Positions 13,561 through 31,706 of a stretch of DNA of 64,000 nt are shown here, piece by piece. The translations under genes and the position numbers were made by a program. The stretch is from an uncultured delta proteobacterium. GTDB lineage: Bacteria; Desulfobacterota; WTBG01; CAIYCZ01; CAIRTM01. The stretch lies in contig CAVRPV010000019.1 in assembly GCA_963723235.1 (NCBI GenBank), positions 84,064 to 148,063 on the forward strand, in the 5' to 3' direction. The number at the start of each line of letters is the position of its first letter. Positions within the stretch are counted from its first letter, which is position 1. Below the pieces are notes generated by a model. The model was not told the DNA's origin. It was given only the letters and a program-made list of their open reading frames with translations, and searched no databases.

Positions 13561-13987
13561 CGAATGGATATTGATCCCCGTATGCTTGCCAAACCCGATT
13601 TCATGCCCTGGGATCTGCTGAATACAAAAGCCCGCAATGAGATTGTACCCAGCTGCGCGTTTGCCAGGCATGACAATCTCAACGTTTTTCAGAATGCTTT
13701 AGCATGACGTGCTGCTCAACCAAACAAACCGGGTTACGCATGAACAGGTGCATAATTGCTACCAAACACCAAACCTGCAAGGAGAAACAATGCTATGAAC
13801 ACACACATTCGAAACACTTTCCTGTTCGTTCTGACTATAGCAGTTGCGTTTCAATTTGTTGTGGCTGCGTGTGCTTTCCGCAGCGCAATTCTGTTGTCGA
13901 CTACACTGCCCAGCGATTTCCAGTATTTGGCGATGCTTATTTTTTAACGGGTATGCTTTCGGGCTCCTGCCGGCCTGACTCGGCATT

Positions 13988-14080
13988 CGACAACCGGACA
14001 GAGCCTGAAACCGCACATATCTTCTGTATTGATAGAGCCATGGAGATAATTCATCTGCAGTCACGCGCGGTTCAGTGATT
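13988..14080 (+). repeat. Copy B of the 95-bp direct repeat, ending in TGATTTTTTT immediately upstream of the PAP2 gene
   Basis: See copy A. Confidence 0.6.
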
Positions 14081-14129
14081 TTTTTCCTGACACAGTACGA
14101 ATACGGATAACAGCCTGACAGGAGAGGAC

Positions 14130-14640
14130 CATGATACATGCATTGATTGGAAAAGTAACCGCCTGGGATATTGTCTTCTTTAGCTCTATCTGCAGAGAAC
14201 GGGAAATACGGCTGTTACGCGCTGCATGGGGGATTTTTCAGCCAGCGGAGACGGGTATTTCTATCCGCTGATTGCCGGGGTGCTGTTCTGCTGTGCGCCG
14301 GGAAGAGGCGATACATTTTGCCATTGCAGCCGGCCTGGCCTTTGCCATTGAACTGCCGGCATACCGCATCCTGAAGCAGAAAGTCAGGCGCAACCGCCCT
14401 TTTTGAGTCACTGCGCGGCATACGAAGCAGGGTTGTTCCTTCGGATCAGTTCAGCTTCCCCTCGGGTCATACGGCAGCAGCTTTTATCATGGCGGTGCTA
14501 CTGGCATATTTTTTCCCTGTAGCAGCAATACCCGTTTACCTCTGGGCTTCATGTGTCGGGCTGTAGCTCGCGCGTATTACCTGGCGTGCATTATCCCTCA
14601 GATATTCTGGCAGGCGTGGTGATGGGCTCGGCAAGTGCCC
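14130..14640 (+). CDS. PAP2-family lipid phosphatase; frameshifted and running directly into the poly-G tract
   Basis: All three PAP2 motifs are present across frames: KQKVRRNRPF, PSGH (PSDQFSFPSGHTAAAF) and SRAYYLGVHYPSDILAG. Confidence 0.7.
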
Positions 14641-14687
14641 TGGCAGGAGGGGGGGGGGGGGGGGGGGGGGGGGGGGGGGGGGGGGGG
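14641..14687 (+). repeat. Homopolymeric G47 tract
   Basis: 47 consecutive G, in frame with the PAP2 C-terminus (15 x Gly) and immediately before the glycosyltransferase start. Most likely a sequencing artefact or scaffold join. Confidence 0.9.
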
Positions 14688-14735
14688 ATATCAGCGCCGT
14701 TGCATAACCTTTCGACCATAGGTGTAAACAACCAT

Positions 14736-28374: not shown

Positions 28375-28506
28375 ACAAACCATATGAACATGTCAGCTGT
28401 CGTGAACACAACCGATTTCATCAACCATGCATGCGGCGCGCGCAAAGCCGTGCCGTAAGGCAGCTTCGCCGGCGGACTGCCGTACCGTCGACAGGGGAGT
28501 AACACC

Positions 28507-29178
28507 ATGGGAGTACATTTAATCACGGAGCTTGAACGGCTCAAAAACATGACTACCAAGCTGGCCCACATGGTGAGCCACGACCTTGAGGATGCCATTG
28601 AGGCGCTGCTCAAAGGCGACCGCGATCTGGCTCTTCAGGTAATTACCAACGACGACCTTATTGACAGGCTTGAAATAGATATTGAAGAGGAATGTCTTAA
28701 GGCGCTCGCACTCTTCCAGCCGGTTGCAGGAGATTTACGCTATATTGTCGCGATATTAAAACTCAACAGCGACCTGGAACGCATCGGTGATCTGGCAGTC
28801 AATATTGCCGAGGCCGTTCTTGTCTTAATTGAGAAAAACCTGGGGTACAGGGATCCCTTTGACGTCCGGCAAATGTGCGATAGCGTCCAAAAGATGGTAG
28901 AAAATGTCCTGCAGGCACTGGTTCATTCCCGGACCTCACAGGCCTACGAAGTTCTGGACATGGACAAAGCCGTCAACGAAATGCACCGCGCCAACTACCT
29001 GTTGGTCGAGGAGGCCATTAAGCAACATATGGACCGCGATATCGGTTTCTACCTCTATTATATAAGTATTTCGCGCTACCTTGAGCGCATCGGCGACCAT
29101 ACGAAAAATATTGCTGAAGATATCATCTACACCATGGAAGGCAAAATCGTGCGCCACTCCCCGAAAAACCGCGCATAA
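28507..29178 (+). CDS. phoU: Phosphate signalling complex protein PhoU
   Basis: Two PhoU repeats, each with a ..LERIGD.. segment. Confidence 0.85.
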   Translation: MGVHLITELERLKNMTTKLAHMVSHDLEDAIEALLKGDRDLALQVITNDDLIDRLEIDIEEECLKALALFQPVAGDLRYIVAILKLNSDLERIGDLAVNIAEAVLVLIEKNLGYRDPFDVRQMCDSVQKMVENVLQALVHSRTSQAYEVLDMDKAVNEMHRANYLLVEEAIKQHMDRDIGFYLYYISISRYLERIGDHTKNIAEDIIYTMEGKIVRHSPKNRA

Positions 29179-29295
29179 GATGCAGCGCCATGACGGAGCC
29201 AGGGTTAAAAAGGTTGAAAAAAAAGGCGAAAGGTGGTTTTACATGACAGATCCCTTTGCAGGAGCGAACATCAATACTACGCGGTACGCACTATG

Positions 29296-29973
29296 AAAAA
29301 AACCATCGCCCTGGTTGAAGACGAGCCCGATATTGTCGAACTGCTTGAAATTCATTTGCAAAAAGGCGGGTTTCAGGTCAGAAGCTTCAATAACGGCAAA
29401 AAATTTCTGGAATACCTTTCAAAAAACACGCCGGATGTCGTGATCCTCGACCTGATGCTGCCCGATATCGACGGTCTGGAAATCTGCAAACAGGTGCGCA
29501 CATCCAACTCCAGCGCTGATATCGCCATTATCATGCTGACGGCCAAAAGCGAGGAAATTGATAAAATCCTGGGCCTTGAACTGGGCGCCGATGATTATGT
29601 CACCAAGCCGTTTTCCCCCAAGGAACTGGTAGCCAGGGTCAAAGCGGTACTGCGCCGGCATGCACCGCGGCAGCAGACCCGCACTATCGAAATCGCCGGA
29701 GGCCTGCTGATTGACCTTGAAAAATACACGGTTACACTTAGGGGCGAAAAGATTCAACTGACGTCGACTGAATTTCGCATCCTGCAGCTGCTGGCATCGA
29801 AAAAGGGCTGGGTCTTCAGCCGGGAGAAAATACTTGATCATCTCTGGGGTGATGAAAAAGCGGTGATTGACCGCACAATTGACGTGCATATCAGGCATCT
29901 GCGCGAAAAACTGGGCACGGCGGCCGGCTGCGTTAAAAACCTGCGCGGAGTGGGGTACAAGCTCGAAGAATGA
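29296..29973 (+). CDS. phoB: OmpR-family response regulator PhoB
   Basis: REC domain (MKKTIALVEDEPDIV..DLMLPDIDG) plus a winged-helix output domain, located directly after pstSCAB-phoU. Confidence 0.85.
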   Translation, partial: KKTIALVEDEPDIVELLEIHLQKGGFQVRSFNNGKKFLEYLSKNTPDVVILDLMLPDIDGLEICKQVRTSNSSADIAIIMLTAKSEEIDKILGLELGADDYVTKPFSPKELVARVKAVLRRHAPRQQTRTIEIAGGLLIDLEKYTVTLRGEKIQLTSTEFRILQLLASKKGWVFSREKILDHLWGDEKAVIDRTIDVHIRHLREKLGTAAGCVKNLRGVGYKLEE

Positions 29974-31706
29974 GAAAAACAATTTTTATAAAAATTTTTA
30001 CGGGTTACGTGCTGATCATCGCCCTGATGACCGGCGGTGTTTCGTTTCTGTGCTACCGTATCGTAAAACATCACCACATCGAAACCCTCACGAGTCACCT
30101 TGAAAAGCTGGCCATCGTTACCGGCCTCAGCATACAGGAGCTCTACGCCCGGCGAGAACAAGCCAACCTGGACCGCATGATTAAGAAGCTCGGCCCGGAA
30201 ATCGGCACGAGAATAACGATTATCGACCAGAACGGCACTGTGCTGGCCGATTCTGAAGGCGATCCACTCAGCATGGAAAACCATAGTTCGCGCCAGGAGA
30301 TCACACAGGCCCTGGGCGGACAGATCGGCGTTTCACAGCGCTACAGCACGACACTGAAAAATGCCATGCTCTATGTTGCCGTGCCGCTCACGCAGGCTGG
30401 TTCGATTGATGGCGTCGTGCGCGTGAGTTGTCCTGCGAGCGATATACAGCACTGGCTGAGCCAGCTGAAGGTTCAGATCGTCCAGATAGCCCTGCTGGTT
30501 ATACTGCTGGCGGTTATATGCGCGCTTTTGGTTGCTCGAAAATTATCCGCGCCCATCGCGCAGCTTAGCCGGGCATCGCGCCAAATTGCAGCGGGCGATT
30601 TTAACGTACGCGTGTTTGTCGACAGCCGCGATGAAGTACAGGACTTCGCGGTGAGCTTTAACAACATGACCGAAAAAATCCGCAAACTCTTTGATGAAGT
30701 GTCTCTGCAGCAGGAGCAGTTGAAAAGCATCATACGCTCCCTGCATGAGGGACTTCTGGTGATTGACCATGCCGGCCGTGTGATGATGTGCAATGAAAGC
30801 CTGGCCCGGATGGCGGGCTTTGAGCCGGGCGAAGCCCCGGGAAAGTTTTACTGGGAGCTGCTGCGCGTGGTGCGGCTTGAGGATATTGTTGAAACGTCCC
30901 GGGCATCAGGGGGCAGCAGCCTGCATGAGGTCCGGCTTGAGGGCAAAACGTGTTTGGTAAACGTCTCGCTGATCACGGAACTGAACGCGCTCGTCATGAC
31001 CTTCCTTGACATTTCAGAAACAAAAAATGTTGAACGCATGAAGCGCGACTTCGTCGTCAACGTCTCTCACGAATTGCGCACTCCCCTTACGGCGATCAAG
31101 GGCTTTGTGGAAACCCTGCAGGAGGAATCCGCAAGCGCCGATCATCAGCACTACCTGGGAATAATCCGGCGCCATACCGACCGTTTGATCAACATCGTCA
31201 AAGACCTTATGGTGCTTTCAAGCCTGGAACACGAGCAGGAACTTGAACTGGAAGAGGTCAATATAAAGGGTATTGCCGAACAGGTAAAAAAAATATATGT
31301 CGACCGTTTGAAAGAGAAAAACCTCTACCTGAATATTGAAGCCGAAAACGGCAAGCTGAACGCACGGGTCGATCCGTTCAAGCTGGAGCAGGTTCTCATA
31401 AACCTGATCGACAATGCCATTAAATATACCGAAACCGGCGGCATTACCATGCGGATGGAGCGCTCGCAGTCCGGTCTGGTTATAAGCGTTGCCGATACCG
31501 GCATCGGCATTGCCGCAGCTCATCTGCCCAAGCTGTTTGAACGTTTTTACGTGGTTGACAAATCACGCTCGCGCAAGGTCGGCGGCACCGGCCTGGGACT
31601 CTCCATTGTCAAGCACATTGTCCTGCTGCACAACGGCACCATCACTGTCGCGAGCACGCCCGGCACCGGCACAACCTTCACCATCACACTTCCCCAAAAC
31701 AGCTGA
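29970..31706 (+). CDS. phoR: Sensor histidine kinase PhoR (TM-HAMP-PAS-HisKA-HATPase)
   Basis: HELRTPLTAIKGF H-box and GGTGLGLSIV G-box. Its start overlaps the phoB stop by 4 bp. Confidence 0.85.
   Translation: MRKTIFIKIFTGYVLIIALMTGGVSFLCYRIVKHHHIETLTSHLEKLAIVTGLSIQELYARREQANLDRMIKKLGPEIGTRITIIDQNGTVLADSEGDPLSMENHSSRQEITQALGGQIGVSQRYSTTLKNAMLYVAVPLTQAGSIDGVVRVSCPASDIQHWLSQLKVQIVQIALLVILLAVICALLVARKLSAPIAQLSRASRQIAAGDFNVRVFVDSRDEVQDFAVSFNNMTEKIRKLFDEVSLQQEQLKSIIRSLHEGLLVIDHAGRVMMCNESLARMAGFEPGEAPGKFYWELLRVVRLEDIVETSRASGGSSLHEVRLEGKTCLVNVSLITELNALVMTFLDISETKNVERMKRDFVVNVSHELRTPLTAIKGFVETLQEESASADHQHYLGIIRRHTDRLINIVKDLMVLSSLEHEQELELEEVNIKGIAEQVKKIYVDRLKEKNLYLNIEAENGKLNARVDPFKLEQVLINLIDNAIKYTETGGITMRMERSQSGLVISVADTGIGIAAAHLPKLFERFYVVDKSRSRKVGGTGLGLSIVKHIVLLHNGTITVASTPGTGTTFTITLPQNS

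Follow-up and report, generated by a model that had tools for sequence, protein, structure and literature searches.

When phosphate is scarce, a major strategy of bacteria is to exchange phospholipids for phosphorus-free lipids; most of the known genes for this lipid renovation come from aerobic Proteobacteria (PlcP-Agt, OlsBA, BtaAB) and a single Desulfovibrio strain. Desulfovibrio alaskensis G20 replaces upwards of 90% of its phospholipids at low phosphate by means of an OlsF homolog (Dde_3661) and a GT4 glycosyltransferase homologous to Agt (Dde_3613); these genes are dispersed, as are pst (Dde_1060-62 and Dde_2386) and phoR (Dde_3782) (PMC5193443). Marine heterotrophs carry Pho-boxed operons of plcP and a glycosyltransferase gene (PMC4796936), and such PlcP-Agt operons, which occur also in SAR11, Sinorhizobium and Pseudomonas, serve phospholipid replacement during phosphate starvation and often lie beside other genes for phosphorus-free lipids (PMC4796936, PMC8528852). 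Pho boxes in general are 11-nt direct repeats with a species-dependent core (PMC4415409), and the PhoB box of Synechocystis consists of three tandem TTAA-core repeats, each of which is required in electrophoretic mobility shift assays (PMC11126600). Here we describe a 64,000-nt stretch of contig CAVRPV010000019.1 from an uncultured delta proteobacterium (the window, to which all positions refer unless another contig is named), in which a pstSCAB-phoU-phoBR core adjoins genes for an alkaline phosphatase and for candidate lipid-renovation enzymes. We consider the region from 10.7 to 31.7 kb to be a conserved Pho-regulon island, a single phosphate-starvation response unit probably controlled by PhoB, with a probability of roughly 60%. 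The identities of its genes, their conserved synteny and a conserved cis-motif shared by their promoters were observed directly; binding by PhoB, induction and each of the lipid products are predictions.

The island shares its logic with the known systems (a phosphoesterase, a glycosyltransferase (GT), an amino-lipid synthase and Pho control), and it differs in the use of other protein families and in the physical join to pst-phoU-phoBR. Like the PlcP-Agt operons it has phosphoesterase and GT genes in Pho-boxed units, the boxes here being putative. Unlike them, its phosphoesterase has a PHP fold of the TrpH/RNase AM type, its GT is of the MJ1255/PF13528 type, it encodes in addition a PAP2 phosphatase, an SRPBCC protein and an orphan HAD-like protein, and the whole is joined to pst-phoU-phoBR. 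The free-standing GT of the MJ1255/VC2487 family also distinguishes the island from G20, whose glycolipid GT is the GT4 enzyme Agt (PMC5193443) and whose olsF homolog lies apart from pst, phoR and the glycolipid synthase gene. The sequence-only reading that preceded this work had cited G20 as documented precedent, which holds for the phenotype but not for the layout, the genes being scattered in that strain (PMC5193443). The core is like the E. coli type in the content and order of pstS-C-A-B-phoU, after which come an OmpR-family regulator and then a histidine kinase. It is unlike that type in that phoBR lies directly downstream of phoU, both PstC (392 aa) and PstA (516 aa) are of a long form, the periplasmic part of PhoR is an sCache domain and the box core is TTAA(C/T) instead of CTGTCAT (PMC4415409). 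The putative boxes resemble the cyanobacterial SphR/PhoB box in having at least three tandem direct repeats with a TTAA core (PMC11126600), but the phylum is unrelated and the unit is A/T-TTAA-C/T with different flanking bases.

Gene order, conservation and promoter arrays

Domains were assigned by Pfam and NCBIfam scans, and broken genes were read by stitching the three frames and also through their intact orthologs. The right part of the island is one co-oriented block on the + strand, comprising the intact genes pstS (23680-24519), pstC (24718-25896), pstA (25900-27450), pstB (27490-28374) and phoU (28507-29178), then the gene of a PhoB-like OmpR-type response regulator (29233-29973) and that of a PhoR-like sCache-HAMP-PAS histidine kinase (29970-31706). 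All five Pst and PhoU proteins scored above the curated NCBIfam cut-offs (PstS 282.3 bits vs 206.6, PstC 250.1 vs 196.45, PstA 266.9 vs 193.45, PstB 402.3 vs 343.2, PhoU 194.4 vs 130.25). The claim of a complete Pst-PhoU-PhoBR system therefore stands for these five, whereas the regulator and the kinase fell below the equivalog cut-offs and are assigned as PhoB and PhoR from their position directly after phoU and their domain architecture. The phoU DNA is 99.7-99.8% identical, without gaps, to two short-read contigs (L005, L006). The pstS-pstC spacer contains a GC-rich hairpin with a 15-bp stem (24577-24614), which may serve as an attenuator within the operon or stabilise the RNA, like the elements often found after pstS.

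On the left side of the island the table of open reading frames (ORFs) showed fragments only, with no intact ORF in the window from the PAP2 gene through the PHP gene. Stitching of frames yielded a PAP2 phosphatase, a Glyco_trans_1_3 GT, an SRPBCC protein and a PhoA-type alkaline phosphatase. Four of the genes run on the + strand as an operon: a gene for an orphan 275-aa HAD-like protein (12884..13704), which is the first operon gene in the relatives, and the genes for the PAP2 lipid-phosphate phosphatase (14131..14707), the GT-B glycosyltransferase (14734..15803) and the SRPBCC protein (15829..16426). They are followed on the - strand by phoA (17297..18857) and an olsF-like gene (19102..20938), and on the + strand by the PHP gene (21204..22993). 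The alkaline phosphatase has a signal peptide and, when stitched, matched PF00245 with E 9e-67, in agreement with its earlier identification; its frame-corrected sequence is 96.5% identical to the intact protein P0127, and its closest named homologs come from metagenome-assembled genomes (MAGs) of Deltaproteobacteria, Desulfobacterales and Syntrophobacteraceae. The domain scans bore out the gene list, order and strands of the sequence-only reading. Its extent (13700-31706) was right as to the genes present but not as to the left boundary, because the unit begins at about 10.7 kb, some 3 kb further left, and its inventory had left out the SRPBCC gene, a YibE_F remnant, a 56-aa ORF, the HAD-like gene and a DASS transporter.

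Related contigs were reached through the best PhoA homologs, whose given names indicate Deltaproteobacteria/Desulfobacterota; homologous contigs are labelled L001-L016, with one further contig from ERZ1426829. The same neighbourhood was found in five independent related contigs (L008, L009, L010/L016, L011 and the ERZ1426829 contig), with the recurring layout PAP2-GT-SRPBCC / phoA / olsF / PHP / pstSCA, of which the contigs other than L008 repeat parts. On L008 (72 kb, JGI) all genes are intact, in the order pstA-pstC-pstS, DASS, a 595-aa protein, OlsF (604 aa), PhoA, YibE_F, SRPBCC, GT, PAP2 and a 290-aa protein. A lineage with about 50% identity (L014) keeps YibE_F-PAP2-GT and has OlsF divergent from the PHP gene, with no pst genes nearby. 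Judged from this gene order, the lipid genes are a conserved module in their own right, since L014 keeps them without pst.

The promoters of these units share tandem repeats. We scanned for arrays of four units at an 11-bp phase, scored out of 20 with a threshold of at least 16, and detected nine in the window where 0.21 were expected, all but one of them at the phoA, olsF and pstS promoters. The pairs TTAA-N7-TTAA (3 observed, 0.57 expected) and TTAA-N18-TTAA (8 observed, 0.61 expected) were also in excess. The pstS promoter (23350..23559, + strand) contains two TTAAC-repeat modules (23350-23383 and 23515-23559) with boxes at 0, 11 and 33, an arrangement conserved also in L011 and L008. Upstream of phoA (19027..19056, - strand) the unit TTAAT stands three times in tandem, spaced by 11 bp, with cores that are invariant across L008-L011 and spacers that differ by lineage (CCGCAC, ACGCCC, ATTCAC); by this comparison of lineages, the phoA array is a phylogenetic footprint. 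In the divergent region between olsF and the PHP gene, a four-unit array (TTAAT / ATAAC / TTTAT / TTAAT in the direction of olsF; 20995..21033, - strand) has the top score of the window, 18/20, and a weaker array directed towards the PHP gene (TCAAC / ATAAC / GTTAT / TTAAC; 21066..21107, + strand) keeps its sequence in every relative. The array before the HAD-like/PAP2/GT/SRPBCC operon reads TTACA / TTAAC / a degenerate unit / TTAAC at 11-bp spacing (12722..12765, + strand) and includes a TTAA-N18-TTAA pair, and its 0/22 spacing is kept in L008, L009 and L011. In L008-L011 the same scan marked, apart from a 71-aa gene in L009, only the promoters of pstS, olsF/PHP, phoA and the HAD operon, and a scan of sigma-70 promoters and terminators stayed at chance level. 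We infer that Pho boxes in this lineage would take the form of these TTAA(C/T) arrays and that the adjoining units would be members of its Pho regulon; the conserved Pho-box-like arrays shared with pstS support a common phosphate control. On the cis level the earlier proposal of control by PhoB is supported by what can be read from these promoters, namely tandem 11-nt repeats shared with pstS, their excess over expectation and their conserved cores.

The 13-mer ATTAACAATTAAG occurs upstream of pstS at 23371 and again at 23547, 176 bp apart and each time inside a TTAA-repeat module, which suggests two Pho-box modules or promoters.

Candidate lipid-renovation enzymes

The olsF-like gene encodes a bifunctional acyltransferase, with a PlsC-type domain (Acyltransferase/Acyltransf_2, residues 33-274) and an Acetyltransf_5 domain (residues 349-450) in one polypeptide, as the description of an OlsF-like PlsC+GNAT protein had stated. 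This is the architecture of Serratia proteamaculans OlsF and of G20 Dde_3661, in which a PlsC-type O-acyltransferase is N-terminal and a GNAT-like N-acyltransferase C-terminal (PMC5193443). The protein aligned to NF052615 over positions 19-569 of 570 with E 1e-122, but unlike OlsF it reached only 410.3 bits against the equivalog cut-off of 620, and its domains also matched the glycine-lipid enzymes GlsB (129 bits) and GlsA (110 bits). The earlier assignment to ornithine lipids thus agrees with the two-domain architecture but misses the equivalog score, and a specificity for ornithine is conjectural. The window ORF has 513 aa compared with 604-610 aa in the orthologs, as a frameshift at 19429 removes the last ~100 residues. 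An exact-protein look-up with the 513-aa ORF gave no match, and scans of genomes and metagenomes with OlsF returned relatives at 42-48% identity only (MAGs of Opitutales, Bryobacteraceae and Acidobacteriaceae and one metagenome contig), which are uninformative for synteny.

The stitched PAP2 protein matched PF01569 with E 6.5e-22, and the three motifs of the family, KxxxxxxRP, PSGH and SRxxxxxHxxxD, are all present in the stitched translation (KQKVRRNRP, FPSGH and SRVLPGVHYPSD). The stitched GT matched PF13528 (Glyco_trans_1_3) with E 5.6e-40; its description as a TIGR00661-type enzyme agrees with the score of the intact L008 ortholog, which is borderline at 198 bits against a cut-off of 195.9. 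The SRPBCC protein, of the polyketide cyclase / lipid-transport fold, has an N-terminal hydrophobic leader. The 275-aa protein belongs to a family with 21 matches among 5.8 billion sequences, and its structural model (predicted local distance difference test (pLDDT) 78, from a shallow alignment) gave weak fold matches (E 0.01-0.1, TM about 0.4), so that the protein is only weakly predicted to be HAD-like. It has an invariant CECEG at the position that we judged to be that of motif I (DxDxT), without the Asp nucleophile. Between this gene and the PAP2 gene lies an insert of about 430 bp (13699-14130), which is common to L011 only (14385-14875 there). It holds an incomplete second copy of the 275-aa gene's 3' end (13980-14075) and a hydrophobic ORF of 50 aa (13795..13947, + strand) that is conserved in L011; an exact-protein look-up with the 50-aa ORF gave no match.

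The PHP gene encodes a 596-aa protein in which a PHP phosphoesterase domain is followed by a helical middle region and a degenerate GT4 N-lobe. Its homologs come in two forms. The long form (~810 aa) occurs in many phyla, combines a PHP domain and a helical middle region with a complete GT4 domain, and is annotated merely as 'glycosyltransferase'. The short form (~600 aa), found in the window lineage and L014, ends after the GT N-lobe. It has lost the PF00534 donor-binding lobe as well as the conserved TD(T)xxDLNG motif with which the GT4 N-lobe opens. The window protein aligns over its full length to the long form with 41-51% identity. Residues D5, H7, H9, D52, H53, H88, H127, D205 and H206 are invariant, and among them the PHP metal ligands D5, H7, H9, H53, H88, H127, D205 and H206 are so in both forms. 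The AlphaFold2 model (pLDDT 85) resembled the PHP proteins RNase AM/TrpH, BAD_1165 and TM0559 in Foldseek (E 6e-7 to 1e-4), while its C-terminal part alone resembled the GT4 N-lobe of BshA and GlgM; the Pfam matches to PHP and to the GT4 N-lobe (PF13439, E 8e-4) were both below cut-off. What had been called a PHP/GT4 fusion is thus borne out as a PHP fold with metal ligands but lacks a complete GT-B domain, the C-lobe being present only in the ~810-aa homologs. No remnants of a GT4 C-lobe were seen when the three frames downstream of the gene were read by eye. From the model and the alignment, the window protein is best taken for a phosphoesterase that has a vestigial GT lobe, and not for a glycolipid synthase. 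Having only a truncated, degenerate GT N-lobe, the short form alone cannot be the Agt-like glycolipid synthase that the comparison with G20 suggested.

Under phosphate limitation, PhoR would phosphorylate PhoB, which would bind the tandem 11-bp TTAA(C/T)-core repeats before pstSCAB-phoU-phoBR and before four or five neighbouring units: phoA, the olsF-like gene, the PHP gene, the HAD-like/PAP2/GT/SRPBCC operon and probably the DASS transporter gene. The predicted outcome is high-affinity phosphate uptake, release of phosphate from esters in the periplasm and replacement of phospholipids. The OlsF-like enzyme would make an acyloxyacyl amino-lipid, probably ornithine lipid; the PAP2 phosphatase and the MJ1255-family GT would most plausibly convert a lipid phosphate to a glycosylated, phosphorus-free lipid; and the PHP protein, with its conserved metal ligands, would, in analogy to PlcP, have phosphoesterase activity towards a lipid head group or precursor. 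If so, the island would offer a candidate Pho-box consensus for an uncultured anaerobic lineage and co-regulated candidates from families to which no lipid-renovation role has been assigned (the PHP short form, the MJ1255-type GT, SRPBCC and the HAD-like protein), and it would point to a widespread, uncharacterised family of PHP-GT4 fusions. A broader proposal, which we find possible but doubtful, is that the PHP-(GT4) family is an undescribed class of lipid-renovation enzymes: the long form would be a single-polypeptide analogue of PlcP and Agt, this lineage would have kept only the phosphoesterase in its short form and moved glycosylation to a new PAP2/MJ1255-GT/SRPBCC/HAD-like pathway, and all of it would be wired to PhoB through TTAA-type boxes and fused to pst-phoU-phoBR. 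A literature search found no paper that ties a PHP domain to phosphate-limitation glycolipids and no description of a PHP-GT4 member.

Several observations weigh against a PhoB-controlled lipid-renovation island. PhoB (TIGR02154) is the best model for the regulator but scored 246.7 bits against a cut-off of 296.2, and for the kinase, which has PhoR-type models among its leading matches, PhoR (TIGR02966) reached 286.3 bits against a cut-off of 334.2 and was outscored by both WalK and PnpS. Two of the arrays, that of the operon at 12722 and one upstream of the 56-aa ORF (16895-16923), are below the 16/20 threshold, and the TTAA core has a low information content, with AT-rich intergenic DNA raising the number of chance matches. 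To our knowledge no member of the MJ1255 family of GTs has been characterised, the short form of the PHP protein has no complete GT, and in the two long-form contexts inspected (L012, L013) the gene is neither beside pho genes nor accompanied by TTAA arrays, although the motif may differ there. Moreover, the PAP2/GT pair could use lipid A or a carrier lipid and not form diacylglycerol glycolipids, because the best PAP2 matches in NCBIfam are the undecaprenyl-diphosphatases SepP and PRK11837, then PgpB and, more weakly, LpxE.

These PAP2 matches open the way to another function for the PAP2/GT/SRPBCC operon and the PHP gene, namely remodelling of envelope glycans or lipid A (dephosphorylation of lipid A, or recycling of a carrier lipid combined with glycosylation) instead of the formation of bulk glycolipid. 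Phosphate control would be compatible with it: Bacillus, for example, has a phosphate-controlled switch from teichoic to teichuronic acid. The uncharacterised GT family leaves room for such a role, and the GT4 domain of the long form also matches GTs for exopolysaccharide, lipopolysaccharide and teichuronic acid. However, all of these matches are far below the cut-offs, the operon and olsF stay closely linked from lineage to lineage, and the best NCBIfam matches of the long-form GT4 domain, themselves far below cut-off, are lipid GTs (GlcNAc-phosphatidylglycerol synthase, then MGlcDAG synthase). We therefore hold an envelope function to be unlikely and prefer lipid renovation as the role of these genes.

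Frame breaks, the regulator and contiguity

We counted frame breaks by frameshift-aware alignment of proteins from intact orthologs to the window DNA. Nine genes between 8.5 and 23.0 kb contain 34 frameshifts and one in-frame stop (TGA at 21652, Ser in the relatives), while all nine ORFs in the 10.7 kb from 23.0 to 33.7 kb are uninterrupted. The frameshifts are distributed over the genes for a 509-aa oxidase at 8.5-10.1 kb (4), the DASS transporter (7), the 275-aa protein (5), PAP2 (4), GT (5), SRPBCC (3), phoA (3 net, plus a compensating pair), olsF (1) and the PHP protein (2, besides the stop). Outside this region, about 20 kb away at ~42950-44330 (- strand), a sigma-54-dependent response regulator (receiver and Sigma54_activat domains) is split over three frames by at least four frameshifts, beside an intact-looking histidine kinase gene (44382-45389), so that the breaks are patchy across the contig. 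A 181-aa ORF with an RF-1 domain (37492-38037) was considered as another split gene and rejected as evidence, as the short RF-1 match also fits an ArfB-like protein.

The 34 frameshifts and the stop codon, like the tract of 39 G discussed below, are most likely consensus or polishing errors and not biology. This rests on comparison of the window with its relatives: once their frames are corrected, the proteins share 64-96.5% identity with intact orthologs and only one stop codon is left, the indels are specific to the window when it is compared with the closest intact DNA (the short-read contigs L010 and L016, 92-94% identical), the sigma-54 regulator is split as well, and L011 is broken at other positions. 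Three features speak against an origin in errors: the density is uneven (34 in 14.5 kb vs 0 in 10.7 kb), the indels lie mostly outside homopolymers, and one lesion, the TGA, is a substitution. They would suit real frameshifts in scavenging and lipid genes that are decaying to pseudogenes, as might happen in a phosphate-rich habitat, with retention of the essential pst-phoU-phoBR core, all 34 lying left of pstS and none in pstS-phoR. In the same direction, the YibE_F gene is truly deleted and is also absent from the ERZ1426829 contig, whose other called island genes are intact, and L011, an independent assembly from a related strain, is broken in olsF, phoA, YibE_F and GT but not in pst. Yet three to seven frameshifts per gene should be accompanied by many stops and relaxed substitutions, whereas we found one stop and identities up to 96.5%; phoA has a compensating +1/-1 pair 22 nt apart; unrelated genes are split too, as the oxidase and the sigma-54 regulator show; L011 breaks elsewhere; and the short-read contigs of close relatives are intact. 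Decay is in our estimate distinctly unlikely. With errors as the preferred explanation, such stretches would be misread as gene loss; the deposited contig of 200,650 bp, for instance, carries phoA as three annotated fragments (P0124, P0125, P0129). The window copy, from an uncultured organism and with 34 frameshifts, is unusable as it stands for the compact model locus that had been proposed.

The frameshifted segment of L011 (ENA ERZ25039527, 'contig_8125', a long-read-style name) spans 7266-13831. The identity between the window and L011 falls to 77-82% across PAP2/GT, and strain heterogeneity that confused the consensus is a possibility for why the same genes are broken in L011.

The arrays could also be bound by another regulator, or be AT-rich UP-like elements, with the clustering of the genes reflecting a shared envelope function. 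The motif is of low complexity, and in L014 similar arrays precede a TonB/ExbBD cluster in AT-rich DNA. Against this, the arrays sit at pstS, a canonical PhoB target, and beside phoB itself; phased scans of the outgroup loci L001, L002 and L004 and of L012 gave zero matches, and L013 a single threshold-level match without a TTAA core. Furthermore, repeats in strict 11-bp phase whose cores stay constant while their spacers vary are the signature of binding by the OmpR/PhoB family (PMC4415409, PMC11126600). We consider this reading of the arrays, by another regulator or as UP-like elements, very unlikely.

The sequence-only reading had counted 47 G in the homopolymer near the end of the PAP2 gene and had warned that a chimeric join there would make the contiguity an artefact. 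The tract has 39 G (14649..14687, + strand). Aligned with L008, L009 and L011, it proves, together with two additional bases, to be purely inserted sequence that lies six codons ahead of the PAP2 stop. A run of 39 G is a typical technical artefact, and the tract is probably one. That the island is an assembly chimera joined at this tract is scarcely credible: the artefact-like run and the poor quality of the nearby sequence would fit, but the PAP2 3' end, the short PAP2-GT spacer and the GT start are colinear with the three contigs on both sides of the tract, base for base in its flanks, PAP2 adjoins GT in these and in L014, and on the ERZ1426829 contig a truncated ORF of 101 aa, not assigned to a family, takes the PAP2 position beside GT. 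The claim of contiguity is therefore sustained, the tract being embedded in colinear sequence and the layout being conserved in the relatives.

Flanking and minor features

Divergent from the HAD-like operon lies the gene for a DASS/CitMHS + TrkA_C anion symporter (10701..12483, - strand). Its position varies, as in L008 it is beside pstS (3956-5752) and in the window beside the HAD-like operon. Since in both lineages it is divergent from a region that carries putative Pho boxes, it may be a Pho-regulated anion transporter.

A YibE_F gene follows phoA in L008, L009, L011 and L014. In the window only a remnant of 22 codons is left (17147..17212, - strand), and the gene is replaced (16415-17212) by about 730 bp without a match in the relatives, which contain the 56-aa ORF with a signal-peptide-like N-terminus (16632..16802, - strand). 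Left of the island, 8004-10094 (- strand) holds the gene of the 509-aa oxidase, which is amine-oxidase/phytoene-desaturase-like, and a gene of the YtfJ_HI0045 family; both adjoin the island in L009 and L011 too.

In L014 (4751-7717 and 9926-10066 of that contig), OlsF is followed by a gene for an LPG_synthase_TM (flippase-like) protein, and dense TTAA arrays precede a DUF3450-ExbB-ExbD-TonB-TonB-dependent-receptor cluster. In the window, an array with a score of 16/20 lies at 52979-53029, about 390 nt upstream of a Porin_5-family gene (51333-52616, - strand), which may be a phosphate-starvation porin of the same regulon, or the array may be a chance match in AT-rich intergenic DNA.

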